From IMG/VR virus record IMGVR_UViG_3300035191_000065: DNA of 64,000 bases; one strand, given 5' to 3'. The DNA is from an uncultured virus (IMG/VR IMGVR_UViG_3300035191_000065). Taxonomy: Duplodnaviria > Heunggongvirae > Uroviricota > Caudoviricetes. The translations under genes and the position numbers were made by a program. How positions within the stretch are numbered: position 1 is the stretch's first letter; every line of letters begins with the position of its first letter. The notes beneath the pieces are model-generated. The model was not told the origin of the DNA. It saw nothing but the letters and a program-made list of their open reading frames with translations, and searched no databases. Shown piece by piece: positions 4,679-28,334 of this stretch.

Positions 4679-4686
4679 GGTAAACG

Positions 4687-5316: not shown

Positions 5317-5324
5317 GTAGAATC

Positions 5325-6521: not shown

Positions 6522-6529
6522 AGGGAACA

Positions 6530-6997: not shown

Positions 6998-7006
6998 GAG
7001 CAGCCG

Positions 7007-7378
7007 ATGGCATCGAAGCTTGCACGAAAACCAGTCAGCGTCCCGATGTATTTTGTCAGGCCGCACGTGAAGCCTGGCGATTACTACCTGCTCATCAACC
7101 CAGTTTCTGGTAGGCGGATGTGGGTCTACCCGAGGCACATGGGTGAGCGTCAGTATGCTGTGACCTCGGCGCTCGGGACTGATGGGGGTACTGAGTCCTC
7201 AGGGCTCAACGTCAGCGAGTGGATGAGCTGGCTTCAGCAGCGGCCTCAGGAGCTGGTGCAGGAGGCTCAGGAAACGCGAGCCGAGCTGGAACGTGCACAG
7301 CGCCTCATGAAGATCGCCATAGGTGCGAGCATTGTGACGTCGGTCTTGGCGATAACAGTTTTTCTGACGAAGGATTGA
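7007..7378 (+). CDS. Small membrane-anchored protein
   Basis: AGGAG RBS; ALGT motif; C-terminal TM. Confidence 0.7.
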   Translation: MASKLARKPVSVPMYFVRPHVKPGDYYLLINPVSGRRMWVYPRHMGERQYAVTSALGTDGGTESSGLNVSEWMSWLQQRPQELVQEAQETRAELERAQRLMKIAIGASIVTSVLAITVFLTKD

Positions 7379-7380
7379 TC

Positions 7381-7647
7381 ATGTCGAACAACTTCCAACA
7401 GACGGCGGAGAACATCGACCAGATCACTGACTTCATCGTGGCACAGGCCATGGAAACTGCATCACAGGTCCAGCAAGGGGCGCAGCAGATTCAGGCTCAG
7501 AGCCAGGCGATCCCTTCTCAGCCACCTGTGCAAGCAACGACGAATGTATCAGGCCCATTTACGTCGTCGGGTCTGTTCTGGTTTGGCCTCGGCGCGGTGG
7601 CTGCGCTGGGCCTTTCTTACTACCTCACGAAGAGAAGAGGAGAGTGA
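7381..7647 (+). CDS. Small Gln-rich membrane-anchored protein
   Basis: Start reassigned to MSNNFQQ; TM LFWFGLGAVAALG resembles that of the 6530 gene. Confidence 0.7.
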   Translation: MSNNFQQTAENIDQITDFIVAQAMETASQVQQGAQQIQAQSQAIPSQPPVQATTNVSGPFTSSGLFWFGLGAVAALGLSYYLTKRRGE

Positions 7648-7651
7648 AACC

Positions 7652-8515
7652 ATGTACGAGTACGTAAGAAGGCCGGGCGGTTTGGGCGCTTCGAAGAACA
7701 GCCACGAATACGTTCCCGTCCCGGGCGGTTTGGGCTGGATGCCCACCTTTACCTCATTTGGTCAGACATTCCGTGGCCCTTCGTGTCAAACGCCGGATGG
7801 CTCAGGGACCGTGACCTGTGGTCGAACAGCAGAAAGCACCTTCATGGCCAATGAAGGCTGCAGGCCCATGAACCTCGACACCGAACTGGGCGGTTCCACT
7901 CGAATTTGCTTCACGGGTACAGGTCCAACGACGGAGGCAAACGCTGGCTTGGTCTGGTGTTGTCCTCCTGGTCGCCCCCGTGCAACGCCGGGTGAGGGCG
8001 CGGCTGTGACTCAGGCTGGAGCGTCCCGTGCTGACATTCGTGAGCTTCAGCAGTGGCTGGAGTCCATCAACTGTTCTGTCGGCACACACGGCATCGATGG
8101 AATCTGGGGTCCTGATACAGCGACGGCCGTTCGGTGTGCTGAGGCTCAGGGGAACGCGACTGTGATCGCTGCGAACTTCCCCTTCGTCGCCACGATGAGG
8201 CAGACTCCAACCGGACAGGCGCGTCCTGCAGACTTCGTTTTTCAGCCTCCTGTTGTGGGAACAAAGACACCGGAGCAGGTTGCTGCGGGCCAGACCATCA
8301 TCCCTGGTGGTCGTGTGGCAAGCACTGGAACCACACCGGGGACAACACCGGTCACTCAGGCCGGAATGGTCGCGGGTGGCATGCCTTGGTGGGGCTGGAT
8401 GGGCCTGCTCGGAGGCGTCGGCGCTCTCGCGCTGGGTGGTCTTTACCTTTACCGAAAGGGAGAGGAAGAAGACGTGCTGCGTGAAGAGTCTGAGCTGGCC
8501 GCGCTCGGATACTAA
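7652..8515 (+). CDS. GLG-leader protein: CCPP module, peptidoglycan-binding (PG_binding_1-like) domain, TM
   Basis: MYEYVRRPGGLG; VWCCPPG; IRELQQWL...GIDGIWGPDTATAV; TM and acidic tail. Confidence 0.8.
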   Translation: MYEYVRRPGGLGASKNSHEYVPVPGGLGWMPTFTSFGQTFRGPSCQTPDGSGTVTCGRTAESTFMANEGCRPMNLDTELGGSTRICFTGTGPTTEANAGLVWCCPPGRPRATPGEGAAVTQAGASRADIRELQQWLESINCSVGTHGIDGIWGPDTATAVRCAEAQGNATVIAANFPFVATMRQTPTGQARPADFVFQPPVVGTKTPEQVAAGQTIIPGGRVASTGTTPGTTPVTQAGMVAGGMPWWGWMGLLGGVGALALGGLYLYRKGEEEDVLREESELAALGY

Positions 8516-8537
8516 GGGCAAAGAGTAGGAGCTAAAA

Positions 8538-9335
8538 ATGTACGAATATGTAAGGAAGCCCGGTGGTTTGGGCATGGGAGCGCTCGGGTGGTCGTACAAC
8601 TGGGAAATCCCGATGAGTCGGGAAATCGCTCGGAGCATCCCTTGTGAGGGAGGTGGCACGATTGCCTGTGCTACTACCGGCGAACAGGGCTTCATGGTGA
8701 GCCAGGGGTGCCAGGTCACGTATCCTGAGCAGGGAGGTGGCACCGGGGCTTGCCGAACATCATCGGGAGCTTCTGGAAACACCTGGTGCTGTCCGCCAGG
8801 GCGCCCTGGTGCCGGAGAGCCCAGCACGATCGTCCAGCAGGCAGTGAGCCGTGATCAGATTCGTCAGATGCAGAACTGGCTTGTCCAGCAAGGCTGTTCT
8901 GTCGGCTCAACGGGTGCTGATGGTGTCTGGGGGCCGAACACGCGCAGTGGTGTCGAATGCGCAGTGGGCCAGACGAGCTGGACCAACGTGGCCGGGCGCT
9001 TCCCGTTCCTCAGCACACTGATGGCCGATCCTTCCGGAGCGGCTCGTCCATCCGGAATGATCTTTGACCCCGGTGCGACCGGGTCGAAGACCCCTGAACA
9101 GGGCGGCGTTCGCTATGCAAGCGGAGGAGCTGCAGCAACCACCACGACAGGCGCCCCGGGTGCTCCTGCTATTCAGCAGGCTGGCATCGTTCCTGGCGGA
9201 ATGCCTTGGTGGGGCTGGCTCGCCATTCTCGGAGGCGTTGGTCTTCTCGCAGCCGGCGGATACTACCTCTACAAGAGGGGCGAGGAAGAAGAAGCCGAGC
9301 TGGAAGAGGCTGAGCTGGCCGCGCTCGGATATTAG
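8538..9335 (+). CDS. Paralog of the preceding gene (CCPP, PG-binding, TM)
   Basis: MYEYVRKPGGLG; TWCCPPG; GADGVWGPNT; same ELAALGY C-terminus. Confidence 0.8.
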   Translation: MYEYVRKPGGLGMGALGWSYNWEIPMSREIARSIPCEGGGTIACATTGEQGFMVSQGCQVTYPEQGGGTGACRTSSGASGNTWCCPPGRPGAGEPSTIVQQAVSRDQIRQMQNWLVQQGCSVGSTGADGVWGPNTRSGVECAVGQTSWTNVAGRFPFLSTLMADPSGAARPSGMIFDPGATGSKTPEQGGVRYASGGAAATTTTGAPGAPAIQQAGIVPGGMPWWGWLAILGGVGLLAAGGYYLYKRGEEEEAELEEAELAALGY

Positions 9336-9344
9336 GAGGTCGTC

Positions 9345-9764
9345 ATGTACGAGTACACCACCAGAAGTCGTCGGGGCATGATGGGCCTGGGAACAGAGCC
9401 TGAGGAGCAGGTTGGTTCCATTCAGAGTGCCATACTCGAAAACGGCTGTTCTCTTCCGCGGTTTGGCCGCGACAGCCGATGGGGCTCAGAGACCGAGGCG
9501 GGTACTCGTTGTCTCGCGGAGCGCCGCGGTTGGGATTTCGTTCTCCAGAGCTGGCCCTGGGTCGCTCAGAGGATGACAATTCCCCAACAACAGGGAGTGG
9601 CGCAGCAGGTCGCCTCTGTCGTTCCCCGAGTCACAGGAAACGGTCAGACTCCAGCATGGCTTCCATGGGCCGCTGCCGGTGTCGGTCTCGTCGGCATCAT
9701 CATGATCGGCTCCTATGTCACAGCAAAAATGGAAGAGGAGCGAGAAAGAAGAGGTCAATTCTGA
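9345..9764 (+). CDS. GLG-leader protein: PG-binding-like domain and TM
   Basis: MYEYTTR...GLGT; IQSAILENGCSLPRFGRDSRWGSET; AGGAGG RBS. Confidence 0.75.
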   Translation: MYEYTTRSRRGMMGLGTEPEEQVGSIQSAILENGCSLPRFGRDSRWGSETEAGTRCLAERRGWDFVLQSWPWVAQRMTIPQQQGVAQQVASVVPRVTGNGQTPAWLPWAAAGVGLVGIIMIGSYVTAKMEEERERRGQF

Positions 9765-10246
9765 TGTATACAAGAGCCCGTCAAGGCCTTGGCTGGACCG
9801 GTGGTTTTACCGTTCCAGGTCAGGAACATCGTTTCTCTCAGCAAACGTGCTCAGGTCCAGCCGCGAACCCAATGGACCCGAGCAGTGACCTCATCTGTGG
9901 TCGCTCCGCCGAGATTCAATACTTGCAGCGCATCGGATGTAGAACAGTTGGCTTCCAAGGAAACCACCACTGCTATACCGATGAGGGTAACCAGGGAGTT
10001 TTCTACTGCTGCCCGCCTGGAGTCCTCGACGCTGAGCTGGCCCGAGCAGCAGCGATTCCTGCACCCAGAGATGGACAGCAGGTGGCGGCGTCCATGATCC
10101 CTGCTGCTGCAACCGCAGCGGGCGCCGGTATCGGCATGGGCATCGGAACCGTCCTAGTGACGGTGGGTGTCATGGGTATCGGTGGATATCTCGTCTGGCG
10201 ATGGGCGAAGAATCGCCAGGAGGAGATGGAGCTGGAGGGATACTGA
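9764..10246 (+). CDS. GLG-leader protein: CCPP module and TM
   Basis: TGATG-coupled start MYTRARQGLGW; FYCCPPG; TM and acidic tail. Confidence 0.75.
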   Translation: MYTRARQGLGWTGGFTVPGQEHRFSQQTCSGPAANPMDPSSDLICGRSAEIQYLQRIGCRTVGFQGNHHCYTDEGNQGVFYCCPPGVLDAELARAAAIPAPRDGQQVAASMIPAAATAAGAGIGMGIGTVLVTVGVMGIGGYLVWRWAKNRQEEMELEGY

Positions 10247-10584
10247 TGTACATCTACACGACGAAGGGTCGACAGCTCTCTCCTCTGAGCACCCTCGTTC
10301 CCTACAATCCTGCTCGACCTCTCCTTCCTCAGGGAATGGGAACGAACGGAGACCAGGTCACGCAGACGGCGTCTATGGTGACGGATCAGGCGACTCGGTT
10401 CAATTTTTGGGTAAAGGTCGCTCTTGCGATGGCGGTTGGTGCCGTCGGCTTTGCTCTTTACAACAAGCTTAGAAGTGAGCCGATGTACCCGAATATGCTG
10501 GCCCCATGGCCGGCGATTGGGCCGACGTTCGCCTATGCGGACGGTATTGGTAGAGCGTTCTCGCTCGTTCCCTTCGTTGTGTGA
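10246..10584 (+). CDS. Small GMG-motif membrane protein
   Basis: TGATG-coupled start MYIYTT; GMGTNG; one TM. Confidence 0.7.
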   Translation: MYIYTTKGRQLSPLSTLVPYNPARPLLPQGMGTNGDQVTQTASMVTDQATRFNFWVKVALAMAVGAVGFALYNKLRSEPMYPNMLAPWPAIGPTFAYADGIGRAFSLVPFVV

Positions 10585-10592
10585 GGTGTGAC

Positions 10593-11276
10593 ATGTATAT
10601 GCGGACAAGAACACGTCGGCCTTTGATGAGCCTTGGGGCACTCGGTTCCAATGGGGCATGGAGCTGGATCGGCCAATCATGCCGTGGAAGTGCCGACTTC
10701 CCGATGGCTGATGGCGAGGTCGCCTGCGTTCCTTCCGGGCAGGAGGGTCGAGCAGACAGTCGGGCTTGTGTTGGAGTGCAGGTTGGTGGTGAGCCCTATT
10801 GCGCTCAGCCAGACGCCACAGACGCTGGTGCGTACTACTGCTGCCCTCGACGTGACAAGGTGCGCGAGCTTCAGATGGCTATTCTTCGAGCAGGCTGTAG
10901 GCTGCCGACCTACGGCGCAGATGGTCTCTTCGGGTCCGAAACGCGTTCCGGGATCAACTGTTTGGCGCAGGCTGTCGGATGGGGAAGTATCGTTGGGCGA
11001 TATCCTGTTGTGCTTTCTTTGGTGGAGGTGCCGGAGGAATTTCGTCCACGGCCTGTAGCGGCAGCAGCGCCAGTCGCAACGCAACCCTCGCAGCCGATTC
11101 AGCCTACACCGGCCCGTTCTGAGTGGAACGCAACTTGGACCATTTTGGCAGTGGGTGTTGGTGGTATCGGTCTTTTCATCTTGATGCAGTACCTGATGAG
11201 CGGCCGAGGTGTCGGCGACGTGGACATTGAAGAGAGAGAGGCACGCTGGGTCGAGGCACCGACAGGCGCCTATTAA
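10593..11276 (+). CDS. Leader protein: CCP module, PG-binding domain, TM
   Basis: MYMR...SLGALGSNG; YYCCPR; VRELQMAIL...GADGLFGSET. Confidence 0.75.
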   Translation: MYMRTRTRRPLMSLGALGSNGAWSWIGQSCRGSADFPMADGEVACVPSGQEGRADSRACVGVQVGGEPYCAQPDATDAGAYYCCPRRDKVRELQMAILRAGCRLPTYGADGLFGSETRSGINCLAQAVGWGSIVGRYPVVLSLVEVPEEFRPRPVAAAAPVATQPSQPIQPTPARSEWNATWTILAVGVGGIGLFILMQYLMSGRGVGDVDIEEREARWVEAPTGAY

Positions 11277-11294
11277 AGAGGTTAAACATTTAAA

Positions 11295-12227
11295 ATGTAC
11301 GAATACCGAAGAACACCTGGTGGGCTTGGCGCTTTGGGCACAAACGGCGAAGGCCGTGATGGAGCCGATCTCCTTCGCGACGTTCAGACAGGTGTTCTCT
11401 CTCGGGGACAAGCCAGAGACGTCTGTTTTAACCTCGCCCCTGACAGGATCGGCACTGACTTTACGGAATGTCGACGACTATTTACGGCAGCAGAGGCGTG
11501 TCGAGTAGATTCAGGCGGCGCCCCATGCAGCAATTTTGAAGTTGCAACATATTGCAACGTGATGAGTCCTCCTAATATCCCCGGTGACTGTGATTACTAC
11601 TTGACCTTTGCAGAAGCTCTGAGCCCTGAAGAAATGAATCGACTTCCGGCGCCCACGGCCGAAGAAATCGTAGAGGCAGAGGGTCTTCTGACGAGATTTG
11701 CGGAGAATGTTGCTGCCGCTGGAAGAAGGATTGCTCGCACTGTTTTGCCGCCCGACCCTCAGGTAGAGGCAGTGCAGAACGCAGTCATTGCTGCTGGATG
11801 TACTCTCCCCCGCTATGGGGTCGATGGTCGATGGGGCGATGAGACCGAGGCCGGCGTCCGATGCCTTGCTGCTCGCCAGAGCTGGCAACAGGTCGTTCAG
11901 CAGTTCCCGACTGTCGCTCAGAGGATGACCGTTCCATCCGGCCCTCCTCCCGTTACGACTACACCAACGACGTTCCCGACGGGTGTCGCTACCGTAGTGA
12001 AGCCATCGTTTTCTCCGCTACCTGTGCCTCCCAGCGTCGCGCAGCAACCGCCGCGAGTTCAAACCGCGTCGATGGGGCCTTCGATTCCGACAACCGGACT
12101 TCCATCCTGGGTCCCGTGGGCTGCTGCAGGCTTTGGTCTTCTGGGGATCATCGTCCTTGGTGCCTACATGACTCGAAAGAAGGAAGAAGAGTTCGAGTTC
12201 GAGGAGGAGCGCTATGGGCGGTTTTAG
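11295..12227 (+). CDS. GLG-leader protein: Cys-rich domain, PG-binding domain, Pro/Thr stalk, TM
   Basis: MYEYRRTPGGLGALGTNG; GVDGRWGDET; TM similar to that of the 9345 gene. Confidence 0.8.
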   Translation: MYEYRRTPGGLGALGTNGEGRDGADLLRDVQTGVLSRGQARDVCFNLAPDRIGTDFTECRRLFTAAEACRVDSGGAPCSNFEVATYCNVMSPPNIPGDCDYYLTFAEALSPEEMNRLPAPTAEEIVEAEGLLTRFAENVAAAGRRIARTVLPPDPQVEAVQNAVIAAGCTLPRYGVDGRWGDETEAGVRCLAARQSWQQVVQQFPTVAQRMTVPSGPPPVTTTPTTFPTGVATVVKPSFSPLPVPPSVAQQPPRVQTASMGPSIPTTGLPSWVPWAAAGFGLLGIIVLGAYMTRKKEEEFEFEEERYGRF

Positions 12228-12651
12228 GCAGATGTACGGCCTCGGTTGGTCGGACGTCGTCGGTCATCCGATGTGTCCTGACTATCCGGGCTACGAGCAG
12301 CGCTGTTTTCGAACGACGACCGTTGATGGTCAGCCGCCCGAGCAAGATTTCGCTCGTGCTCAGGGGTGCGCTCCGATCAATCAGCCTTGCAGCACCTCAC
12401 CGGCTGGAAACCCGGGTCTCGTCTGGTGCTGTCCTCCTGGTTGGCCGCGTCCACCGGGGTCGCCTCCTCTGGAACCGGGTCAGACGCCGCCTGCGCCGCC
12501 TGCGCCACCGGGTATCGGTCGATGGTTTCAGCAGTCATCGAGCCGGTGGTGGTTCTGGCTTGGAGCACTTGGTCTCGCTGGCATCGCCTTTTTTGGCTAC
12601 AAGGAGTACGAGGCGAAGCGAGAAGAGCTGGAACTCGAAGAGGAGTTCTGA
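12214..12651 (+). CDS. GLG-leader protein: CCPP module and TM
   Basis: MYGLGW (alternative start 12232); VWCCPPG; acidic tail. Confidence 0.75.
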   Translation: MGGFRQMYGLGWSDVVGHPMCPDYPGYEQRCFRTTTVDGQPPEQDFARAQGCAPINQPCSTSPAGNPGLVWCCPPGWPRPPGSPPLEPGQTPPAPPAPPGIGRWFQQSSSRWWFWLGALGLAGIAFFGYKEYEAKREELELEEEF

Positions 12652-12654
12652 TCC

Positions 12655-13107
12655 ATGTACGAATACAACCCCAGAGGGATGGGCTGGTCGCAGGTCAATG
12701 AACCTCCAACGTTCGGTCAGATCTTCAGCGGAGAGAGGACACAGAAGCAGTGCTTGGAGTTTCCAGGGGGGAATCAATACTGTTTCGTGGAGCCGGATGA
12801 ATACCAGTTCGCTTATGACAGAGCTTGTGAGCGAATTGGGTGGCCTTGCAACACCGCGGAGAATAATGCTGGTGCCGTCTGGTGCTGTCCTCCTGGATTC
12901 CCAGACTTCCCAGTGCAGCCCGCCGAGCCAGCTCCGGTAGAGCCAGAACCGCAACCGCAGCCTCAGCCAGTGCCTACTTCTCCTCAGCCTCCAGCTTTGC
13001 CGCAGGTGGCATCTGCCTCGATGTTTGGTCCGGTCGTGGCGTTGTTGGCTCTCGGGGTCGGCGGCTGGTTTGGGTATCGGTATTTGAAGAGAGAGGGGCA
13101 CATCTGA
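12655..13107 (+). CDS. GMG-leader protein: CCPP module, PQ stalk, TM
   Basis: MYEYNPRGMGW; VWCCPPG. Confidence 0.75.
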   Translation: MYEYNPRGMGWSQVNEPPTFGQIFSGERTQKQCLEFPGGNQYCFVEPDEYQFAYDRACERIGWPCNTAENNAGAVWCCPPGFPDFPVQPAEPAPVEPEPQPQPQPVPTSPQPPALPQVASASMFGPVVALLALGVGGWFGYRYLKREGHI

Positions 13108-13760
13108 TGTACGAGTACAACAGAAGACCTGGCGGTCTCGGTGCTCTCGGCTGGTCTGTGATGAGCAGTTGGGATTTGGCCCCGCTCTTTGGTCGTCCTC
13201 AGTGTATGTGTACGACGGATGACGTAGGAAGACAGTATCCTCCGGACGAAGTTTGCTTCATGGAGGATCCACAGAACGCTGGTGAAGTTTATCCTCCAGA
13301 CCTCAACGTCGCCAACCTCTACGGCTGCGTTCAGAATATGCAGACGTTTCTCACCGGAGATGAGCCGAAGCGCTGTGAGACTGCTTCTGGTAACCCCGGT
13401 TTTTGCTTTTGCTGCCCGAGTGGAACACCGCGGGCCGATCCCGAGACTCCGGAGGCCGCTCAGATTCGTGAGGAGGAGGCACAGCTCCCTTTGCCGCCCG
13501 AGATTCCCGGTCTTCCGACGGTGGAACCTCCTACGACTACGCAGCCGCCTGTTCAGTCTCCGACGAAAGAGCTTCCTCCTGAAGGATCGACACCGACAGC
13601 GAGGATCACGACGACGCCGATCACTGGCATCGGAAAGATTCTGTCCGATCCAAAGGTTTGGGTTGCTGTAGGCATCCTGGGGACGGCGGCTTATCTCGGC
13701 AAGCGCTACTTCGACCGGAAGCGAGAAGAGCGCATGCTGTTCTCAGAGGAGATGGGCTGA
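13107..13760 (+). CDS. GLG-leader protein: CCP module, Pro/Thr stalk, TM
   Basis: TGATG-coupled start MYEYNRRPGGLGALGW; CFCCPSG. Confidence 0.75.
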   Translation: MYEYNRRPGGLGALGWSVMSSWDLAPLFGRPQCMCTTDDVGRQYPPDEVCFMEDPQNAGEVYPPDLNVANLYGCVQNMQTFLTGDEPKRCETASGNPGFCFCCPSGTPRADPETPEAAQIREEEAQLPLPPEIPGLPTVEPPTTTQPPVQSPTKELPPEGSTPTARITTTPITGIGKILSDPKVWVAVGILGTAAYLGKRYFDRKREERMLFSEEMG

Positions 13761-14434
13761 TGTACGAGTACTCGACAGGGCTCGGGCTCGTCGGCCCCGG
13801 CTGGACGGATATTTCTGGTAACCCCCCCTGCTCAGAAGTTGTTGGAGGGGGTGTCACTCGATGCTTCGAGAATACGGCAGATGCAGGGGCGTGTGCTCGT
13901 GAGGGGGGATGCGTTCCTTCTGCCAGAGGGCAGACGTGTTCGGTTGAGGGAGTGGCTGGTTCGACGTGGTGCTGTCCACCCCACTGGCCTCGTCCTTTCC
14001 TGGCATGTCCTACTCAGGCTGGTGGGCGGATAGAGCCTTCGGTAGCGACGTGTCAGTCCCATCGCGTCGACAGGAACAGCCTGACGACGTCTCGTTCACG
14101 GGTCATTTGGGATATTCAATCGCGTCTTTGCTCAATGGGTATTGATCCGGGTCCGATTGATGGTGTTGGGGAAGCAACGTCATTCGCAGCGGCTATTCGG
14201 GCATCCCAAGCGCGCGGTGGTATTCCGCAGACAGGGACCCCGGATCAAGCGACTCTCTTTCGGATGGGGTTCTCTGCGGCTGATGCTCAGAGGATGGCCG
14301 GAACTCTTGTACCGGCCGGACCAGGAGGTGGATTCGATCTTGGCATTCAGCTCCCATGGGCTCTTGTGATTGGGACCTCTGCAGCGGCCATGTTCATGCT
14401 TTACGCCGCATGGAAGTTCAAGAAGAGGTCGTGA
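13760..14434 (+). CDS. GLG-leader protein: CCPP module, PG-binding domain, TM
   Basis: TGATG-coupled start MYEYSTGLG; TWCCPPH; IQSRLCSMGIDPGPIDG...AIRASQARGGIPQTG. Confidence 0.78.
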   Translation: MYEYSTGLGLVGPGWTDISGNPPCSEVVGGGVTRCFENTADAGACAREGGCVPSARGQTCSVEGVAGSTWCCPPHWPRPFLACPTQAGGRIEPSVATCQSHRVDRNSLTTSRSRVIWDIQSRLCSMGIDPGPIDGVGEATSFAAAIRASQARGGIPQTGTPDQATLFRMGFSAADAQRMAGTLVPAGPGGGFDLGIQLPWALVIGTSAAAMFMLYAAWKFKKRS

Positions 14435-14706
14435 TGGAGCGAAACTTCGGACCAATTGCTGCTGCTGCCTATCCGATCCTCATCGGTGGTTCGTTGATTT
14501 TTGCCGGTATGGCCTTTGGTGCGTTTCAACAGAACGGAACGACGGAAGTTCAGGACCAGCAGCAGCAGATTGAGGAGCAGCGACGACGTGCAGCGGCGGC
14601 TCAGTCGCAAGCAATGTACGGGCTGCTCGTTCCGATGGGGATGATCGCAATCCCAGCGACAGCCATCCTGGGGATGTATTTTATCCTAAGGAAGAGAGAG
14701 CGATAG
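14434..14706 (+). CDS. Small two-TM protein
   Basis: Coupled start MERNFG; two hydrophobic helices around a Q/R-rich coil. Confidence 0.7.
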   Translation: MERNFGPIAAAAYPILIGGSLIFAGMAFGAFQQNGTTEVQDQQQQIEEQRRRAAAAQSQAMYGLLVPMGMIAIPATAILGMYFILRKRER

Positions 14707-15003
14707 ATGCAGCCAAATCCATGGTGGGTCCCTGCTCTGTTGTATGGCGTTCCGTTGGTTGTTGGTACGGGATGGGCTGGCTATGCCATATCGCGTTCAG
14801 TGTCCGAGGGAGAGAGGGAGAGGCTGGAGCAACAGAGGCAACAGGCTATTCGACAAGAAGAGCAAGCCCGTGTTGCGCAATTGCAGACGCAAATGATGAT
14901 CGAGCAGATGCGCCCATGGATGTGGGCATCTGTTCCGGCGATGGTGCTCATTGGGGCGTACCTCTTGCACAAGTCTAAGCAGGAGGAGGTGGAGGAGCTG
15001 TGA
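14707..15003 (+). CDS. Small two-TM protein, same architecture as the preceding gene
   Basis: MQPNPWW; TM, Q/E/R coil, TM, acidic tail. Confidence 0.7.
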   Translation: MQPNPWWVPALLYGVPLVVGTGWAGYAISRSVSEGERERLEQQRQQAIRQEEQARVAQLQTQMMIEQMRPWMWASVPAMVLIGAYLLHKSKQEEVEEL

Positions 15004-15404
15004 GGCCCGGAGTTAATTACGGCGCGATCGCGACCAATGGAATGTACAGCGTTTGGGATTGGACGACCGGGAAGTACAAATACTATCAGGCTCCAGAGCC
15101 TGATCGTCCCAAGTACGGTGAGGAAGTCCCGCCGCCGCCTTTTTCGCCAGCGCTCGGAAGCGCTCTCGGCGAAGCCCCAGATACCTCGGGCCACAGTCTT
15201 CCACCAAGGGCGAAGTATGTTGGAACAGGCTCTCTCGCAATGGGTGAAATTGTTTCCGAGGTGAGCACCCAGACACCGATCAATCCATGGCTGTGCGTTG
15301 GGTTAGCGATCGTCGTTCCGACGGCACTTCTCTGGCTGACAACCAGACTTGATAATCGTCCTCAGGACGAAAGATTCGGTACCTTCGAGTCGGAGATGGA
15401 GTAG
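15000..15404 (+). CDS. Membrane-anchored protein
   Basis: GTG start overlapping the previous stop; ALGSALG; C-terminal TM. Confidence 0.7.
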   Translation: MRPGVNYGAIATNGMYSVWDWTTGKYKYYQAPEPDRPKYGEEVPPPPFSPALGSALGEAPDTSGHSLPPRAKYVGTGSLAMGEIVSEVSTQTPINPWLCVGLAIVVPTALLWLTTRLDNRPQDERFGTFESEME

Positions 15405-15406
15405 AC

Positions 15407-16159
15407 ATGGCTCGCAGTAGGCGGCGCGTCCAAGTGCGCGATATTCTCAATGACCCGATCGAACGACGCGAACTGATGATCAGGACGATCATCGCAACGC
15501 AGGCTCGTGAGGGGATCACCGTCACTCGCGAGCGAGCTGAAGAGGTCTATGACAAGATTCAGCGAGAGCTGCGTCATCAGCGTCCGAACCCAGGTTCGCC
15601 CATCGAGCGAAACGACGCAAGGTCGGCGCAGGCTGCAGCGAAAACGTTCAAGCGCTTTCACTCGCGCAAGAAACTTGAACCGGTCTTCCCTTTTCACGGG
15701 CAGGAGCACTCGGTATTCGAGCTGGAAGGTGTTGACTGGCCTGAGCAGGTGAGCTTACTCGGTGTCGCAATGCGAACGCTCTATGAGAGTGACAAATGGC
15801 ACCAGCGCGGTGAGACCGTCGAGTACTACCACGATCACGATCGAAACGTTGTGAAGTTCATGGTTCCTTCAGATGAGGGAGGCGCACTCGAACCAGTGCA
15901 GCTTCCTTACGGTTGGCCAGAAGAGGTGATGCTCATCGGAGAGTGTATTGGATTCGTCGTTCGGCCCCTGGATACTGGAGAGATCACCGAGGGTACGATG
16001 AAGGGAAAGAACGTTTTGGTCGCGTCACCTGACGGGTGGGTTGATCCGCGGCGACCGAACCGAGTTTTCTTGGCGATCATCAACCTGGACGGAGGAGGAG
16101 TCGAGAGTGTCATAGACGGCCCCAACCTCCGCATCACCTCACATGGGATCGAGGGGTGA
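15407..16159 (+). CDS. Soluble hypothetical protein with two regions joined at RPNP
   Basis: 250-aa ORF with GGAG RBS; basic helical N-terminal part and a beta-rich C-terminal part. Confidence 0.75.
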   Translation: MARSRRRVQVRDILNDPIERRELMIRTIIATQAREGITVTRERAEEVYDKIQRELRHQRPNPGSPIERNDARSAQAAAKTFKRFHSRKKLEPVFPFHGQEHSVFELEGVDWPEQVSLLGVAMRTLYESDKWHQRGETVEYYHDHDRNVVKFMVPSDEGGALEPVQLPYGWPEEVMLIGECIGFVVRPLDTGEITEGTMKGKNVLVASPDGWVDPRRPNRVFLAIINLDGGGVESVIDGPNLRITSHGIEG

Positions 16160-16160
16160 T

Positions 16161-16502
16161 ATGAGCTACGAGTACACAACAAAAAGCTCGATGGGTGGCG
16201 CTGCTGGTGGTCAGTCTGGTGGGAGTGTCACTCTTCGTGTAGCACCGTGCGGGCAGCGTGCTCCAAACCGGGAGCTTCAGGCCGAGCTGGACGAGTGGTA
16301 TCCGGGGATTATGCCTCGTGTTGTAGGTCGTCTCGATATCAACTGTTACGTGGGCTCGACACAAAGCTATCGATTCTCTTACGCCACAAGTCCTCATAAG
16401 GCATACCGCGTTAGGATCATTGGGCACCTGCGCGACATAAAACAGGTGGAGAACTTCAAGGGCGGCACCCACAAGGTGTTTGACGTCGTTCAAAAGTCAT
16501 AA
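16161..16502 (+). CDS. YEY-leader soluble protein
   Basis: Start reassigned to MSYEYTTKSSMGG; no TM. Confidence 0.7.
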   Translation: MSYEYTTKSSMGGAAGGQSGGSVTLRVAPCGQRAPNRELQAELDEWYPGIMPRVVGRLDINCYVGSTQSYRFSYATSPHKAYRVRIIGHLRDIKQVENFKGGTHKVFDVVQKS

Positions 16503-16514
16503 AGGAGATTGGCG

Positions 16515-16868
16515 ATGCTGGGATATTGGGAAGAAGCTGTTGGGATGGGGCAACCGGAGACCTCGATGGGGAACTTCGGACTTGTCCTGGCGCAGTTCGC
16601 GCTCGGCGGAGCTGCTGCTGCCATCGTTTCTCCAATGGACCGCAAGTACGCCGTCATTGAGGGCGGCGTCGCTGCTGTTGCGCTGGCACAAGCCGCTCAG
16701 GCGATTGTTCCGATGAGTGGGGTCCTGTTCTGGTTGCGAACGTTTGCTATTCCATCTGGTGCAGGTGCGGTCGTCGGGATTTGGCAACAGAAGCAATGGG
16801 AGCGAGAGCTGAGGGCAAGCTACGAGCTGGATCGAGCGCAGCGTCTTGCTTCTCGCGCAAGGGCGTAG
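16515..16868 (+). CDS. GMG-motif multi-TM protein
   Basis: MLGYWEEAVGMG; hydrophobic Gly/Ala-rich helices. Confidence 0.7.
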   Translation: MLGYWEEAVGMGQPETSMGNFGLVLAQFALGGAAAAIVSPMDRKYAVIEGGVAAVALAQAAQAIVPMSGVLFWLRTFAIPSGAGAVVGIWQQKQWERELRASYELDRAQRLASRARA

Positions 16869-16877
16869 GAGGGGACG

Positions 16878-17381
16878 ATGTACGAGTACACTCCAGCGAC
16901 TTACGAGTCGATGATGGGATTCGGACTTGGTACAAATGGCAACGGCGCTGAGCCGGTGGCAGTTACCGTTCCTGGTTTGCAGCTCGAAGATCAGGCTTTT
17001 GTTGATACGGGCGTTCCAGCTCCTGCAGACAACGGAACGAGGGCTCTTGCCATCGGAGCTGGCGTCGGGGCACTCGCTCTTCTCCTGCTTGGGATCGTCG
17101 TGATTGGAATTGCCATGCCGTTCGCGCTCGGAGCTGCTGGTGCAGCGATTACCGGAGCGAAGGGATACAAGAAGGAGGCGGCGAAGAAGGGTGCCATCTA
17201 CGGCGGTCTTGCTGGTATTGGCGCGGGCATCGTGCTGACCATCGTCTCTGCTGGCCTCGAAAGTGTGAGTCAGGGCAGCGGTCGTTACGTTGGAGGCTCT
17301 GGTCTCGTTCCTTTCGCTGTCGGACTCTACATCGGCTACAAGCAGAAAGAACGTTTGCGTGAAGAAGGCGCAATCGATTAA
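16878..17381 (+). CDS. GLG-leader multi-TM protein
   Basis: MYEYTP...GFGLGTNG; 3-4 hydrophobic helices; GGAGG RBS. Confidence 0.75.
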   Translation: MYEYTPATYESMMGFGLGTNGNGAEPVAVTVPGLQLEDQAFVDTGVPAPADNGTRALAIGAGVGALALLLLGIVVIGIAMPFALGAAGAAITGAKGYKKEAAKKGAIYGGLAGIGAGIVLTIVSAGLESVSQGSGRYVGGSGLVPFAVGLYIGYKQKERLREEGAID

Positions 17382-17391
17382 GGAGGAGAGC

Positions 17392-17601
17392 ATGTCTTAC
17401 GAGTATCAGAGGGTGCAGGGTGGGCTAGGTGCAGCAGCACCTACTCGTGTGAGAACACATGCCCCCGTGCCGCCCGCTAGAGCTGTTTCGCTTTGTGCAT
17501 CATACGAAGAAGAATTGCGTTTGCGAGAACATGAGTTGCATTTGGCGACGCTGGAGCATCGAGCAGCACAGTTGCGCCTGCAGCGCTGCCGTCAGGGATA
17601 G
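17392..17601 (+). CDS. GLG-leader small coiled-coil peptide
   Basis: AGGAGG RBS then MSYEYQRVQGGLG. Confidence 0.7.
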   Translation: MSYEYQRVQGGLGAAAPTRVRTHAPVPPARAVSLCASYEEELRLREHELHLATLEHRAAQLRLQRCRQG

Positions 17602-17731: not shown

Positions 17732-17824
17732 TGTAATCGTCTCGGTAAGCCTGTCCCAGCCCCATAGGATGGTGCCGAGAGAAAACCCAATCCCTCTCAG
17801 ACCTGAACAAGGGACAGGCTTAGT

Positions 17825-20800
17825 ATGGCCAAGGGCTACGTGCTGAACACACCAAAACGCAAGAATCCCAGCAATGGGACGCGGCGCGGTGTGACCATGG
17901 TCAACCCCAGACCGCGCGCCAGTGCGTCTCGGTGGGGCCATGAGAGCATCCTTCCCCGCAGGTATTCTCGTCGTGAACGGACTCGGGCAGCATGGGAGAA
18001 CCCCTCGCCGCGAAGGAGTAGCAGGCGCTCCTCGAATCCGGTTCAGGGCAGGATCGTCGAGAGTGGAAAGTCTCCCAAGGCTCGGAAGAACTCCTCGACC
18101 AAGCAAGTGAGCGGTCGTGTGGTTCCTAATAAAAAGGCTGGATCATATGCTCGCAGAGCGAATACCGGCCGGAGAAAAAGTGTTTCCAAGAACACCGTCT
18201 CCGGCCGCGTCGTGAAGACGTCGCGTAGCGCATCTGCGAGCAAACGAGCTTCGAGCGCAAGCCCGAAGAGGAACTCCACGCGGTCGCGGCCCCAGTCCCG
18301 CAATGCCGCAGGGAAGAAGAAGTCAGTGGCAACCAAAAAGAGAGCCACGAAGCGCAAGCCCCGGAAGGTGACCGTGAAGGTTCCGGCGAAGCGCACTCGT
18401 ACAGGTAGGGTCGTCCGCAAGGCGTATACCTACAAGCGAGCAGCAAAGCCGAAGCGCAAGACGGCGACCCGGAGAAAGACGACGACTCGTCGTCGTAACC
18501 CGGCCCCGAAGCGCAACACCCGAACGGGCCGCATGGTCTCGAACAAGAAGAAGCGCATCACGGCGAACAAGACGGTTCGTTGGCGGACAGACGTCCACCC
18601 CGGCACCAAGAAGCGCGGCATCCTGGGTACGCCCATGACGATGGCTGAGCGCAAGAAGTGGACCTCTCGTGGGTTCCAGCGCGCGAAGCAGAAAGCTGAG
18701 CGTGCTCAGCGTGTCAAGGCGACGGCGGGGAAGAAACGAGCGCCAGGTGTCAAGGGCGCAGCGGCGAAGGGTCACTGGAGGCAGGGTGTCATCCACCCCG
18801 TCACCGGTCGGCTCGTCGGCGGTCGGCCCATGTCTGAGCGCGACAGCAAGCTGTTCAAGACCGACGGAACGACTCGCAAGGGAGTCGGGCCGGCGGCAGT
18901 CAACGCAGCGTATGGGCTCAAGCCCAGCGCGGCAAAAAAGGCGAAACCAACCAGGAGGAAGACCGTGGCAGCGAAGCCCAAGAAGCGGAAGACGACCGCG
19001 AAGAAGCGCCGCCGCACGACTGGGAAGCGCTACCGCGTGCGAAAGCCCAGTGGCGGCACCTATCTGCGCCGGTACCCGACCAAGCGTCGGAAGACCGCCA
19101 AGAAGAAGACCGCCCGTCGGGGCAAGACCGTCACGGTCAAAGTCCCCGCCAAGCGCTCTCGAAGCGGAAAGATCTTGCGCAAGGCCTACAGCTACAAGCG
19201 AAAGGCCACGACCACCAAGAAGCGCAAGCCGGCCAAGCGCAAGACCGCCAAGCGGAAGACCGCTCGTCGGTACCGCGTCCGCAAGCCGGGCGGCGGCACC
19301 TACATGCGCCGCTATCCGACCAAGCGTCGGAAGGCGACCAAGAAGCGCGCCACCAAGAAGACCACGCGCAGGCCGCGTCGGTACCGCGTCCGCAAGCCGG
19401 GCGGCGGCACCTACATGCGCCGCTACCCGACCAAGCGTCGGAAGGCGACCAAGAAGCGCGCCACCAAGAAGGCCAAGCGCGGCAAGGCCCGTCGGTACCG
19501 CGTCCGCAAGCCGGGCGGCGGCACCTACATGCGCCGCTACCCGCGTCGCAAGGCCAAGGGTCGCAAGCGCACCTACTCCCGCAAGCGTTCGAACGGTCGC
19601 CGCAAGGGCAAGATCGTTCGCGTGAAGGGCTACACCCGCGCCGACGGCGTGAGGGTGAAGGGCTACTCCTACCGTCTCAAGAAGACGGGAAGCCGCAAGG
19701 GCAAGATCACCCGCAACCCCTACAAGCGGTCCAAGGTCCGCGTGCATCCCTACAGCTACACGCGCCGGAAGCCGCGTCGGAAGCGCGTGAAGGTCCCCGG
19801 TGGCCGCAGGAACCAGTGGTATCCGCACCACTACGGTGGCAAGTGGATCTCGCAGGCAAAGGCCAAGAAGCTCGGCCTCCTCACCAAGCGTGAGCAGCGA
19901 GCCATGATGCGAAATGGTGGCCACGCCGCCATGGTCACGAACCCCGAAGCACTCGCCATGCTCCCGACGAGCGAGCAGCTCATGTCGGTCGGCAAGGCAG
20001 CGGGTCTCGGATTCATCGGCTTTGGCGCCGCGGTCGCTGCTGGTCGCGCTCTGACGAACGTCACCTCGATCTCTCAGCACCTCGGCAACTGGACCTCGGT
20101 CGTCGGAAACGTCGCAGCCGGTCTCGGCTTCTGGGCTCTCGCATCCTTGATGCCGGAGAACGAGAAGCTGCAGGCGATGAAGCCCTTCGTCGCAGCCGGT
20201 GCTGGTATGGCCGCGATCGTCAACATCATGCTGAACCTCGTCGCGTCCAGGACGATCCCGTCCGACTACGCTGCTTGGGTCATGCCTGGTGCTGGCGCTG
20301 CTGAGGCCGCACCAGCCGCAATCGTCGAGCCTGCCAACGGTATGCTCCCGATCGCTCCGCAGGCGATGGTCACCAACGGCAACGGCCTCGTGAACGGCAA
20401 CGGCAACGGCCTCGTGAACGGCAACGGCAACGGCCTCGTGAACGGCAACGGCATGCCGCCCGAGCTGGAGGCTGAGGGGACCGCTGGATTCGGTCAGATC
20501 GACATCTACGAGGCAGCCCTCGACGGTGTCGGTGGGATCGAGGAAGAGCTGGAGCTGGAGCTGGACCGCATGAGCGGTATGGGCGGCGACCAGGGCGGCA
20601 TCTTCGAAGGCGGCAAGGCGGGTGTTCTCTCTGGGATGGACGGTACCGGCGAGTACCTCGAAGTTCCCATGAGCGAGTACCTGGAAGTCCCGATGAGTGG
20701 GATGGGAGCCATGGTCGAAGAGGCTTTCGCCGGTGGCGGAAGCGGCGGTGTCAGCGAGTACCTCGAAGTTCCGATGAGTGAGTACCTGGAAGTCCCGATG

Positions 20801-21340
20801 TCGGGCATGGGCGCTCAGGTCGAGGAAGCCTACGCTGGGATGGGAGCCATGGTCGAAGAGGCATACGCCGGCACCGGCGAGTACCTCGAAGTTCCCATGA
20901 GCGGCATGGGTGCGATGGTCGAAGAGGCCTACGCGGGCATGGGCCAGGAGCCCTCCGTCGCGGCCGTCGAACAGAGCATCCGAACGCGTCCGCTGATGCC
21001 TGGCTTCAAGCAGGCCGTCGCCAAGATGGTCCGGGAGCGCATCGCTGCCGGTCTTCCTCTCGATGACGCGTTCTACTCGAAGCTCGGCCGAGCAGCCGCT
21101 GGCCTCGCTCGCAAGAAGTTCGCTCAGCGGGTTCGCCAGGTATCGGGTCGACCAGGTCACCTCCCGATGGAACCCTGGAAGCCCCCGCTGCTTCGCAGGT
21201 CGGCTCCCATGTACCGACGTCCCGTCCACGACCCGGCGCCCGGTCGAGTCCCTGGCGTGGCAGAGCCGATTCCGACTCACGGCCCCAAGGGCGGTGACGA
21301 GGGGATCTTCACAAGCGGTGAGGAAGAGGGAATCTTCTAG
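17825..21340 (+). CDS. Giant Lys/Arg-rich putative DNA-condensing core protein or polyprotein, with membrane segment and acidic repeat tail
   Basis: About 690 aa of K/R-rich sequence with repeated NP/N motifs, three hydrophobic helices, NG repeats, EYLEVPMS/GMG repeats; strong C/G third-position bias. Confidence 0.75.
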   Translation: MAKGYVLNTPKRKNPSNGTRRGVTMVNPRPRASASRWGHESILPRRYSRRERTRAAWENPSPRRSSRRSSNPVQGRIVESGKSPKARKNSSTKQVSGRVVPNKKAGSYARRANTGRRKSVSKNTVSGRVVKTSRSASASKRASSASPKRNSTRSRPQSRNAAGKKKSVATKKRATKRKPRKVTVKVPAKRTRTGRVVRKAYTYKRAAKPKRKTATRRKTTTRRRNPAPKRNTRTGRMVSNKKKRITANKTVRWRTDVHPGTKKRGILGTPMTMAERKKWTSRGFQRAKQKAERAQRVKATAGKKRAPGVKGAAAKGHWRQGVIHPVTGRLVGGRPMSERDSKLFKTDGTTRKGVGPAAVNAAYGLKPSAAKKAKPTRRKTVAAKPKKRKTTAKKRRRTTGKRYRVRKPSGGTYLRRYPTKRRKTAKKKTARRGKTVTVKVPAKRSRSGKILRKAYSYKRKATTTKKRKPAKRKTAKRKTARRYRVRKPGGGTYMRRYPTKRRKATKKRATKKTTRRPRRYRVRKPGGGTYMRRYPTKRRKATKKRATKKAKRGKARRYRVRKPGGGTYMRRYPRRKAKGRKRTYSRKRSNGRRKGKIVRVKGYTRADGVRVKGYSYRLKKTGSRKGKITRNPYKRSKVRVHPYSYTRRKPRRKRVKVPGGRRNQWYPHHYGGKWISQAKAKKLGLLTKREQRAMMRNGGHAAMVTNPEALAMLPTSEQLMSVGKAAGLGFIGFGAAVAAGRALTNVTSISQHLGNWTSVVGNVAAGLGFWALASLMPENEKLQAMKPFVAAGAGMAAIVNIMLNLVASRTIPSDYAAWVMPGAGAAEAAPAAIVEPANGMLPIAPQAMVTNGNGLVNGNGNGLVNGNGNGLVNGNGMPPELEAEGTAGFGQIDIYEAALDGVGGIEEELELELDRMSGMGGDQGGIFEGGKAGVLSGMDGTGEYLEVPMSEYLEVPMSGMGAMVEEAFAGGGSGGVSEYLEVPMSEYLEVPMSGMGAQVEEAYAGMGAMVEEAYAGTGEYLEVPMSGMGAMVEEAYAGMGQEPSVAAVEQSIRTRPLMPGFKQAVAKMVRERIAAGLPLDDAFYSKLGRAAAGLARKKFAQRVRQVSGRPGHLPMEPWKPPLLRRSAPMYRRPVHDPAPGRVPGVAEPIPTHGPKGGDEGIFTSGEEEGIF
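19022..19545 (+). repeat. Coding repeats of RRYRVRKPGGGTYMRRYP
   Basis: Near-identical nucleotide copies at 19265, 19376 and 19490; a diverged copy near 19028. Confidence 0.9.
20375..20452 (+). repeat. Tandem coding repeat (NGNGNGLV)n
   Basis: aacggc(aacggc)aacggcctcgtg repeated three times. Confidence 0.9.
20645..20945 (+). repeat. Coding repeats EYLEVPMS and GMGAMVEEAYA
   Basis: Five EYLEVPM units and four (M/Q)VEEA(F/Y)A units. Confidence 0.9.
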
Positions 21341-21528
21341 CTGATCGTCATCATGGTCTCGGGGATAGGGACGTGCACCCCGAAAAGCGGTTTCTCCGAC
21401 CGCCTTCCCCGAGGCCTTGAACATTATTTCGGAGTGTTTGGCCCCGCGGAGAGGGGTAGCAGGTAAGACAGCGGGACGACCACCCGCTAGGCCCGCAAGG
21501 GCTGAATCAAAACGGGAGGAGAAAAGAC
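21341..21528 (+). other. Structured intergenic RNA / 5' leader of the candidate capsid gene
   Basis: Consecutive hairpins: cccc/gggg 21442-21456, agcggg/cccgct 21470-21488, gccc-GCAA-gggc 21491-21502. Confidence 0.5.
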
Positions 21529-22176
21529 ATGCCTGCAATCGTTGGCGTCATCGAGCGTCTGCATCAGCCCCTGTACGACACCCTCTGCCGAGGCGTGTCG
21601 GACGCGACCACGAACATCGGCCCGAACGGTCAGCCGGTGAGCACCCAGACCCGTCTGTTCTCGGGGACAAACCTCGGTAACAGGGCCTGGACCAACATGA
21701 AGATCGCCGGTCAGCTCGTCGCCGACCGGACCTTCAAGATCAAGGCGCTCCGCTGCCTCACGCACTTCCGTGCGGGTGAGCTGACGTCCGGCTTGGTCGG
21801 ATCGCCGGCCTACTACGTCCACAGGCTGTACCTGCAGTGCCAGGCCCAGCTCTTCTGGACGGTCGCCATCGGCGACAAGCCGCAGTTCGTGTCGGGCACC
21901 CACTACGTGCCCATGGCAGCCGGCATCTACGGCGACATCGGTGGGGACACCTCGCTTGTCCTCATCAACAACGGCGTGCCCAGCCACTCGGCTCTGCTTC
22001 GCCTCGGTCGCCCGATCGCCGTCCCGCCCCGCCAGGGTATCGAAGTTCTCGCAGAGGTCTTCCCCATGGCGAACACCGCGGACCACGACCTGGTGCAGGC
22101 ACTGAATCTCGAAGACGACATCGCCAAGGATATCAAGTACTTCCTTGACGGTCTCGGAACTCGCGAGGTTCAGTAG
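21529..22176 (+). CDS. Candidate major capsid protein (single jelly-roll type)
   Basis: 215 aa, beta-strand-like pattern, no TM, strongest C/G codon bias in the window, GGGAG RBS, flanked by hairpins, directly after the core gene. The fold is inferred. Confidence 0.55.
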   Translation: MPAIVGVIERLHQPLYDTLCRGVSDATTNIGPNGQPVSTQTRLFSGTNLGNRAWTNMKIAGQLVADRTFKIKALRCLTHFRAGELTSGLVGSPAYYVHRLYLQCQAQLFWTVAIGDKPQFVSGTHYVPMAAGIYGDIGGDTSLVLINNGVPSHSALLRLGRPIAVPPRQGIEVLAEVFPMANTADHDLVQALNLEDDIAKDIKYFLDGLGTREVQ

Positions 22177-27803: not shown

Positions 27804-28334
27804 ATGGCGACCGCAAGAAAAAATGCTCGAAAGAAGACAGTTCGCCGGAACACGGGCCGCAAGCCCGCGAGGAAGAACCCGGCGAAGAAGAAGGGGCTAA
27901 CCTGGGGCAAGGACGTCAAGGGCCACCCCGTGACGGGGAAGCCTTGCGCTGGCCGACCGATGTCGCAGCGCGACCAGAAGCTCTTCACCAAGATGGGCAA
28001 GAGACGCGCAGGCGTTACGCCGACCATGGTGAAGGAGGCCTACGGTCTCAAGAAGACGGCCACTCGCAAGGCCGCGCCGAAGCGCAAGAGAACCACCAAA
28101 AAGGCCGCGCCGAAGCGCAAGACGGCCGCAAAGCGCGCCACGCCGAAGCGTCGCAAGGGCTCGTCCGTGACGGTCAGGGCTTGTCCGACGCGTTGTCAGC
28201 GCTATGTCGTGGTGGATGGAAGCATGCGCTACCAGTCCTCGCACAAGCTGCTGACCTCGGCACGGAAGAAGCAGGCTGCGCTGGAGGCGAAGTATCCGCG
28301 CAAGGTCTTCAGGATCGTCGATACGAAGGGCTAG
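27804..28334 (+). CDS. Small Lys/Arg-rich DNA-binding protein, partial paralog of the giant core protein
   Basis: AAGGAGG RBS; RKNP; HPVTG...GRPMS.RD.KLF...AYGLK shared with the 17825 gene. Confidence 0.75.
   Translation: MATARKNARKKTVRRNTGRKPARKNPAKKKGLTWGKDVKGHPVTGKPCAGRPMSQRDQKLFTKMGKRRAGVTPTMVKEAYGLKKTATRKAAPKRKRTTKKAAPKRKTAAKRATPKRRKGSSVTVRACPTRCQRYVVVDGSMRYQSSHKLLTSARKKQAALEAKYPRKVFRIVDTKG

Follow-up and report, generated by a model that had tools for sequence, protein, structure and literature searches.

The uncultured virus with IMG/VR record IMGVR_UViG_3300035191_000065 has, at 17825..21340 on the + strand, an open reading frame for a protein of 1171 amino acids. We analyzed this frame and its surroundings in a 64,000-nucleotide stretch of the viral DNA (hereafter, the window). 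The protein begins with a long and very basic arm, continues with three hydrophobic stretches, and ends with an acidic tail and a conserved C-terminal module. Its parts are as follows. (Residue numbers are those of the 1171-amino-acid protein.)

17825..21340, + strand: whole open reading frame, 1171 amino acids plus stop
17825..19894, + strand: polycationic arm, residues 1-690; always strongly basic, while its sequence and length vary between relatives
18569..18964, + strand: small conserved module, HP.TG...G.PM[ST]..[ED]R.K[LW][FT], present twice, at residues 249-290 and 324-380 (from the alignment)
19028..19546, + strand: four RYRVRKP.GGTY..RRYP units and the second V.V.VPAKR...RKAY.YKR unit
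19592..19924, + strand: basic juxtamembrane module, residues 590-700, with nearly invariant N631, P632, Q664, W665, P667, W674, and L686 (from the alignment)
19940..20332, + strand: invariant NP...LP..EQL motif and three Gly/Ala-rich hydrophobic stretches, then W818/P821
20375..20452, + strand: NGNGLV repeat, variable or absent among relatives
20453..20965, + strand: acidic region, residues 877-1047, with 34 acidic (D+E) versus 2 basic (K+R) residues
20987..21274, + strand: conserved C-terminal module, with a predicted-helical part (PLMPGF..AV...V..RI..G.P.D..FY..LG.A) followed by PWK..LLR.SAPMY..P
21293..21337, + strand: acidic C-terminal tip, ending EGIF-COOH

An earlier reading of this DNA, made from the sequence only, had described an arm of about 690 amino acids with an extreme content of lysine and arginine. 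The composition agrees: residues 1-690 contain 120 lysines and 135 arginines (255 in total) versus 4 aspartates and 8 glutamates (12 in total). Just 3 of the 77 window proteins have more than 20% lysine plus arginine. (The whole protein has no cysteine.) The repeats named in that reading are all present as well. V.V.VPAKR occurs twice, in V.V.VPAKR...RKAY.YKR units at residues 182 and 436; RYRVRKP.GGTY occurs four times, at residues 402, 482, 519, and 557; and the tail has the array of EYLEVPMS and GMG motifs. The last 2.5 RYRVRKP.GGTY units coincide with a 111-bp tandem repeat in the DNA (19265-19543; 2.5 copies, 95% identity), and NGNGLV is encoded by a 24-bp tandem repeat (20374-20453; 3.3 copies, 100% identity). 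Both are recent enough to be visible at the DNA level. The copy numbers are uncertain, since the assembly of the gene from an independent DNA run breaks at the tandem repeats.

The hydrophobic stretches lie at residues 722-745, 756-777, and 786-808. Invariant positions in this core include glycines, two intramembrane asparagines (N762 and N800), and W770. The mean Kyte-Doolittle hydropathy over 19 residues reaches 1.6 only in the third stretch (786-808) and is about 1.5 or less in the other two. Thus, of the three hydrophobic helices that the sequence-only reading had proposed, all three stretches exist and one of them reaches the threshold. (The same reading also spoke of a hairpin, which contradicts three helices.) Judging from the sequence, three membrane helices are plausible.

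Beyond the membrane segment, the acidic region holds an invariant block (G.IDxYEAAL.G..GIE.ELE.E), one GIF, and an array of EYLEVPMS, GMG, and VEEAYAGMG motifs (residues 942-1041). Counted over the whole protein, there are five EYLEVPMS, six GMG, four EEA[YF]AG, and three GIF motifs. All GMG motifs fall within residues 918-1038, and all seven NP dipeptides fall within residues 14-706 (2.5 would be expected), so in the linear sequence the two kinds of motif do lie on either side of the hydrophobic segment, as had been noticed before. NP is about 2-fold over-represented across the window and is not peculiar to this gene. The net charge is +243 for the N-terminal part and about -25 to -26 for everything after the last hydrophobic stretch. 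These charges are too unequal for the protein to be "self-neutralising," as it had been called.

Conservation indicates that 17825..21340 is a real, conserved gene. The alternative would be that the frame is open by chance in repetitive, GC-rich DNA: the sequence has low complexity, and an antisense frame of 1071 amino acids (18323..21538) overlaps the gene. But 32 homologs have conserved non-repetitive blocks and frame-preserving indels, the GC content at third codon positions (GC3) is 0.79, and synteny is conserved, all of which effectively refutes a chance frame. The antisense frame is best explained as a side effect of coding sequence that is rich in GC. The start at 17825 is supported because the N-terminus (MA.GY.LNTP in the alignment) is kept among full-length relatives.

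Near-identical DNA is present in several wetland metagenome runs. RNA-library contigs that match 19212-19263 (mostly 19220-19261) were rejected as evidence of expression: they have up to 4 mismatches over 31-42 bases and probably derive from basic repeats of other organisms. The AT-rich intergenic region upstream of the gene (17602-17824) has a 17-base palindrome (17677-17693) as well as a hexamer similar to TTGACA, and it may be regulatory.

A family with a variable basic arm

A search with residues 690-1171 found 32 homologs of 666-1119 amino acids (E = 1e-62 to 0), all of them metagenomic. An exhaustive profile search of 1.84 billion representatives gave 34 matches at E ≤ 1e-3, so the family is narrow. 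More distant members (P0181 and P0184-P0192; 371-688 amino acids) have the same domain order, with basic N-terminal parts that are unrelated in sequence. (The basic part of P0181, for instance, has AKKAS-type repeats.) These distant members retain the hydrophobic, acidic, and C-terminal GIF parts.

Comparisons to databases gave no annotation. Pfam had 0 families at E ≤ 0.01 for the whole protein and for its halves (noise alone, at E up to 5), a scan of PHROGs found no match, and a sequence search of PDB with the family profile returned only noise (E = 0.17). In the ESM atlas, the best score for residues 690-1171 was 0.84 and all of the clusters were unnamed, so there was no usable lead. A phage collection had no match by DNA or protein search. 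In IMG/VR, no relative was found with the single protein, and a profile search gave 40 pattern matches, of which 0 were confirmed. Similarly, 58 pattern matches from a profile search of GTDB genomes led to 0 confirmed relatives.

The alignment separates what the family keeps from what it does not. Conserved are the start of the protein (MA.GY.LNTP...VNP), the juxtamembrane module, NP...LP..EQL, the hydrophobic core, IDxYEAAL.G..GIE.ELE, the helical C-terminal module, and the GIF tip. (The C-terminal end is G-[IV]-[FL] in 32 of 43 members, and 7 more have a single additional residue.) Variable are the sequence and length of the basic region and the number of EY..P.G and VEEAYAGMG units. Among complete-looking relatives, the arm ranges from 97 to 718 residues, or about 7-fold. 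Over the 43 members, the arm's net charge lies between +14 and +243, and what follows the membrane segment is always negative, by 9-31 (by about 18-27 among the 32 close homologs). These comparisons indicate that selection keeps the charge of the arm, not its sequence or its length.

This pattern bears on the idea that the protein is an entry device, either with a polycation that binds anionic polymers of the cell envelope or with Gly-zipper-like helices that form a pore or tube for DNA exit. The hydrophobic stretches are indeed rich in glycine and have invariant polar residues, and neighboring proteins have peptidoglycan-binding domains (described below). However, an arm whose length varies about 7-fold and in which charge alone is conserved fits bulk charge neutralization better than a receptor or a pore. 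We consider an entry device very unlikely.

The capsid-like neighbor and the shared motifs

All 77 of the delimited genes in the window are on the + strand, and there are no tRNAs in the window. The neighbors that matter most for interpreting the protein are as follows. (Identities are across loci.)

5325..17601, + strand: 12 genes for proteins that start with M(x)YEY..G[LM]G and mostly have a hydrophobic anchor at the C-terminus
21529..22176, + strand: 215-amino-acid single jelly-roll protein, probable major capsid protein; 74-92% identity
22369-23139: further conserved gene (256 amino acids); 48-72% identity
23143-23829: further conserved gene (228 amino acids); 42-72% identity
27804..28334, + strand: 176-amino-acid basic protein, 32% K+R, with an HPVTG module in common with the arm

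The arrangement of these genes is conserved. All 11 of the metagenome loci with the 1171-amino-acid gene are syntenic to 4.6-33 kb of the window. In all 10 of the loci that extend far enough, the gene for the 215-amino-acid protein begins 130-260 bp downstream, so homologs do lie upstream of its counterparts, as the sequence-only reading had suggested looking for. The 215-amino-acid gene is preceded by a GGAGG ribosome-binding site. Contigs from three metatranscriptome libraries match it and the spacer upstream (21346-22300) with 0-1 differences.

A structural model of the 215-amino-acid protein is a single jelly roll, with a predicted local distance difference test (pLDDT) score of 82.9 if 50 diverse sequences are used. 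(With 11 close sequences, the score is 33.) The best match of the model is the capsid protein of SPV1 (Foldseek E ~1e-3 and probability 0.96-1.0; VIA Z = 8.0 over 134 residues, although a note of the tool itself calls best Z values of 7-8 common). The next matches are capsid proteins of HHIV-2, STIV, P23-77, HCIV-1, and FLiP (Z = 5.1-6.2), all of them viruses that contain a membrane. We consider the predicted jelly-roll fold to be solid and the type of virus indicated by these matches to be a lead. The 256- and 228-amino-acid proteins have no family match, and profile-profile comparison shows no similarity between them or to the 215-amino-acid family; both are candidate capsid proteins. A predicted complex of the 215-amino-acid protein with residues 1041-1171 scored 0.00, which is neither for nor against binding.

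The acidic tail is linked to the proteins upstream by a short motif. Protein starts of the form M(x)YEY occur 13 times on the + strand of the window and 0 times on the - strand; 12 of these are at 5.3-17.6 kb, just upstream of the 1171-amino-acid gene, and one is at 44399-45073. In this tag, M(x)YEY is followed by G[LM]G within about 2-12 residues. In related loci, the tag is found 32 times on the + strand and once on the - strand. A more general pattern, E[YF]-x(1-9)-G[LMF]G, is present in 12 of the 77 window proteins: it begins at residue 3-4 in 11 of them and occurs three times internally in the 1171-amino-acid protein, versus 0 of 65 others. This agrees with the earlier suggestion that the tail echoes a YEY...GMG leader. 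When the tail was shuffled 2000 times, the pattern occurred 0.11 times on average and at most 3 times (the observed number is 3). Across the family, tails contain 3-11 patterns of the EY...G[LM]G type. One tagged protein (7652-8515) has a second copy, EYVPVPGGLG, which bridges the tag and the tail unit EYLEVPMSGMG.

GIF is shared too. In the conserved product of 6494-6997 (167 amino acids), an acidic stretch with three GIF motifs precedes a C-terminal hydrophobic anchor. Given this and the sharing of EY...G[LM]G, the tail consists of the kinds of short motif that other membrane proteins of the module also have. M(x)YEY...G[LM]G looks like a family-wide N-terminal address or propeptide.

The 1171-amino-acid protein might be a processed polyprotein or assembly hub, which is a more specific form of the polyprotein that the sequence-only reading had proposed. 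A virus-encoded maturation protease would then cut at the G[LM]G with which tags and tail repeats end. This would release the DNA-binding arm and leave a membrane fragment, several short acidic peptides, and a separate C-terminal domain, and the neighbors' tags would be removed in the same step. In 13 window proteins the tags stand at the extreme N-terminus, relatives conserve them, and the repetition of the pattern in the family's tails (3-11 times) would also be expected. Tag removal has precedents in the capsid-targeting sequences of T4 and in adenovirus precursor proteins. Several of the sites in tags and tail read M-x-G-[LM]-G (M-S-G-M-G in the tail), which resembles the consensus of the adenovirus protease, (M/I/L)XGX-G or (M/I/L)XGG-X. 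However, many tags (PGGLG) do not fit this consensus, and family scans of the 64-kb window found no protease family, adenain-like proteases included. A possible protease is encoded at 26363-27196 (277 amino acids). This protein has an N-terminal membrane segment and, after hydrophobic strands, invariant G-H-(G/S)-T and W-A-G-C-S blocks; the invariant G-H and W-A-G-C after a membrane anchor are what a His/Cys protease might have. Judged by eye, we consider it a putative His/Cys protease and a lead, but it has no Pfam match, and a sequence search of PDB gave only noise for it. We regard processing of this kind as unlikely.

Membrane proteins are concentrated in the first 31 kb of the window. A strongly hydrophobic 19-residue stretch (mean Kyte-Doolittle hydropathy of at least 1.6) is present in 22 of 41 proteins in 0-31 kb versus 7 of 36 in 31-64 kb. 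At 3287-14434, many of the tagged proteins and their neighbors have a single hydrophobic segment at the extreme C-terminus (a tail-anchored layout). Four paralogous tagged proteins (7544-8512, 8538-9332, 11295-12227, and 13658-14434) have weak to moderate matches to peptidoglycan-binding or endolysin-like families (PF01471, E = 3.2e-5 and 4.3e-4; phrog_1493, E = 1.3e-4). Together with the GGAGG ribosome-binding site, the peptidoglycan-binding matches indicate a bacterial host and suggest a bacterium with a peptidoglycan cell wall.

The 176-amino-acid basic protein (27804..28334) is 56% identical over 57 amino acids to the second copy of the arm's small module (HPVTG...GRPMS.RD.KLF...AYGL; E = 9e-17 by BLASTP), and it may be a second DNA-binding component.

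Further downstream, 37357-63995 is densely packed with enzymes of the sugar and modification type. They include several glycosyltransferases (GT1, GT2, and GT4), a fusion of a pyruvyl transferase and a methyltransferase, two NUDIX hydrolases, a GDSL lipase, a radical SAM protein, and a protein similar to sulfotransferases. This enzyme cargo is unusual for a phage. The genome extends past the 64-kb window, and homologs of both the 1171- and the 215-amino-acid proteins are recorded on contigs of 251,882, 269,630, and 291,722 bp.

A proposed role in the virus particle

Our preferred explanation, to which we give slightly better than even chances, is that the protein is a virion component of an undescribed membrane-containing jelly-roll virus of bacteria, with a polycationic arm that binds DNA, a membrane anchor, and a multivalent acidic docking tail. 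The protein would attach the DNA of the virus to the lipid membrane inside its particle. From its composition and the conservation of that composition, the arm of about 700 residues (+243) would bind double-stranded DNA electrostatically and partly neutralize it, in the manner of histone H1 tails, protamines, or adenovirus protein VII. The Gly/Ala-rich core (722-808) would insert into the viral membrane and, given its hydropathy and its invariant Gly, Asn, and Trp, would probably pack against itself. Motif sharing suggests that the acidic tail presents short linear motifs (EY..VP..G[ML]G, VEEAYAGMG, and [DE]GIF) in a multivalent array. Because the tail motifs are of the same kind as the tags, one partner could read both the tail and the N-terminal tags of at least 12 neighboring, mostly tail-anchored proteins; this partner might be a protease that processes them, or else the surface of a capsid or scaffold. 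The C-terminal module and the Phe-ending acidic tip would dock onto another virion protein.

In support of this proposal, the order of basic arm, hydrophobic core, and acidic tail is kept even though the arms are unrelated, which fits an electrostatic, membrane-anchored binder of nucleic acid. The evidence also supports placing the gene in a conserved, structural-looking viral module, with a capsid-like gene directly downstream and many membrane proteins around.

The same protein could instead act in the infected cell rather than in the particle. It would then hold the host nucleoid or replicating viral DNA at the cytoplasmic membrane, where assembly or replication takes place. In that case the +243 arm would remain in the cytoplasm, as it must, and the conserved membrane anchor would be explained; scans of the 64-kb window also saw no packaging machinery nearby. 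On the other hand, the gene has a fixed place just before the capsid-like gene, within the module of small membrane proteins, and its tail shares a motif with that module's proteins. We therefore think that a role confined to the infected cell is quite improbable.

Where the tail would lie relative to the arm depends on topology, and so does the suggestion of the sequence-only reading that the protein would define the topology of both tags. With three spans, the arm and the tail would be on opposite sides of the membrane; with two spans, they would be on the same side; and in either case the arm stays where it is made. If the tail shares a reader with the tags of the tail-anchored proteins (whose N-termini would be cytoplasmic), then a hairpin with both ends on the same side would be more coherent, contrary to what the sequence-only reading expected. 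Which side of the membrane faces the DNA depends on how the membrane is acquired. The membrane of PRD1 virions is pinched off from the cell membrane.

Several points weigh against a DNA-binding virion protein. If the membrane is acquired as in PRD1, then an arm of +243 that is unable to cross the membrane would face the capsid and not the DNA. The hydrophobic stretches are weak, with two of the three under the usual threshold. The protein is assigned to the virion from the position of its gene alone. The matches of the 215-amino-acid model to capsid proteins are modest, so the type of virus is not solid. In the 64-kb window, neither scans of Pfam and PHROGs nor profile comparison found a packaging ATPase, a protease, or a second recognizable capsid protein. 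Finally, the evidence for expression of the gene is thin, as it consists of one identical contig of 227 nt (20082-20308) from one RNA library. (Parts of the gene without RNA coverage are not evidence of silence.)

Comparison to known systems and implications

Viral basic proteins that condense DNA are a known kind of protein. The core proteins VII, V, and mu of adenovirus condense double-stranded DNA, and their precursors are trimmed at Gly-containing sites. Like the 1171-amino-acid protein, they are very basic (a likeness of composition only); they act inside an icosahedral jelly-roll capsid. The sequence-only reading had drawn this parallel, and it holds as a functional analogy but not as homology: there is no sequence similarity (0 Pfam families). 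Also, the proteins of adenovirus are small, soluble, and free of any membrane anchor or acidic array, and they belong to a virus with a double jelly-roll capsid and a eukaryotic host.

Among viruses with lipid, the Sphaerolipoviridae (P23-77, HHIV-2, and HCIV-1) have single jelly-roll capsid proteins over an internal membrane with many small membrane proteins, and their capsid proteins match our model of the 215-amino-acid protein at Z = 5.2-6.2. Unlike in those viruses, no block of an ATPase and two capsid proteins was recognized in the 64-kb window. Phages with an internal membrane have genomes of about 17-31 kb. SPV1 (Portogloboviridae), whose capsid protein is the best structural match of the 215-amino-acid protein, differs in having a genome of about 20 kb and an archaeal host, and no sequence similarity was detected. 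A passage of PMC8459092 describes SPV1 as having a protein shell, a lipid layer, and a protein-coated DNA core.

Other polycations resemble the arm in composition. Hc1 and Hc2 of Chlamydia, the tails of histone H1, and protamines are also low-complexity proteins or regions rich in Lys, Arg, Ala, Pro, and Thr. However, they are soluble and have neither membrane nor acidic parts, and true protamines are much richer in Arg. The Hc2 profile (PF07382) does not match the 1171-amino-acid protein; its match to the 176-amino-acid protein at 27804..28334 has E = 4.5 and 7.8 bits, compared to a cut-off of 40. As for the tags and the tip, other short terminal peptides serve for addressing or docking, such as the targeting sequences of T4 internal proteins, encapsulin cargo peptides, and the Phe-ending acidic tips of SSB and T7 gp2.5. 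Those have other sequences, and here motifs of one type tag the N-termini of many proteins and also recur inside a single protein.

In the open PMC and bioRxiv literature, we found no description of this lineage or of this protein, nor of any bacterial jelly-roll lineage in which a basic DNA-condensing protein is fused to a membrane anchor and an array of tag-like motifs. In the main text of a review of membrane-containing phages (PMC6356626), a term search found no word beginning with "condens" and no DNA-binding, basic protein, nucleoprotein, or histone.

A bolder proposal, which we offer tentatively and doubt more than we believe, is that the protein is the organizing center of an undescribed bacterial virus with a large genome (at least 64 kb). 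In such a virus, the anchored polycation would condense DNA on the membrane instead of leaving it to be packed naked. A system of addresses (the tag on at least 12 tail-anchored proteins, its repeats in the tail of this protein, and [DE]GIF) would sort the proteins of the particle. And the lineage, with no relative found in IMG/VR and no match in PHROGs, would have been missed by phage-finding pipelines. The known membrane-containing phages are small. If the proposal is true, then particles of bacterial viruses can also be assembled along other lines, here with a genome of at least 64 kb, and a whole lineage would be missing from the standard catalogs of viruses. The shared tag provides a testable hypothesis for how dozens of proteins might be addressed to the virion membrane. 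And the family is a clean case in which charge, rather than sequence, is the conserved property of a protein arm.

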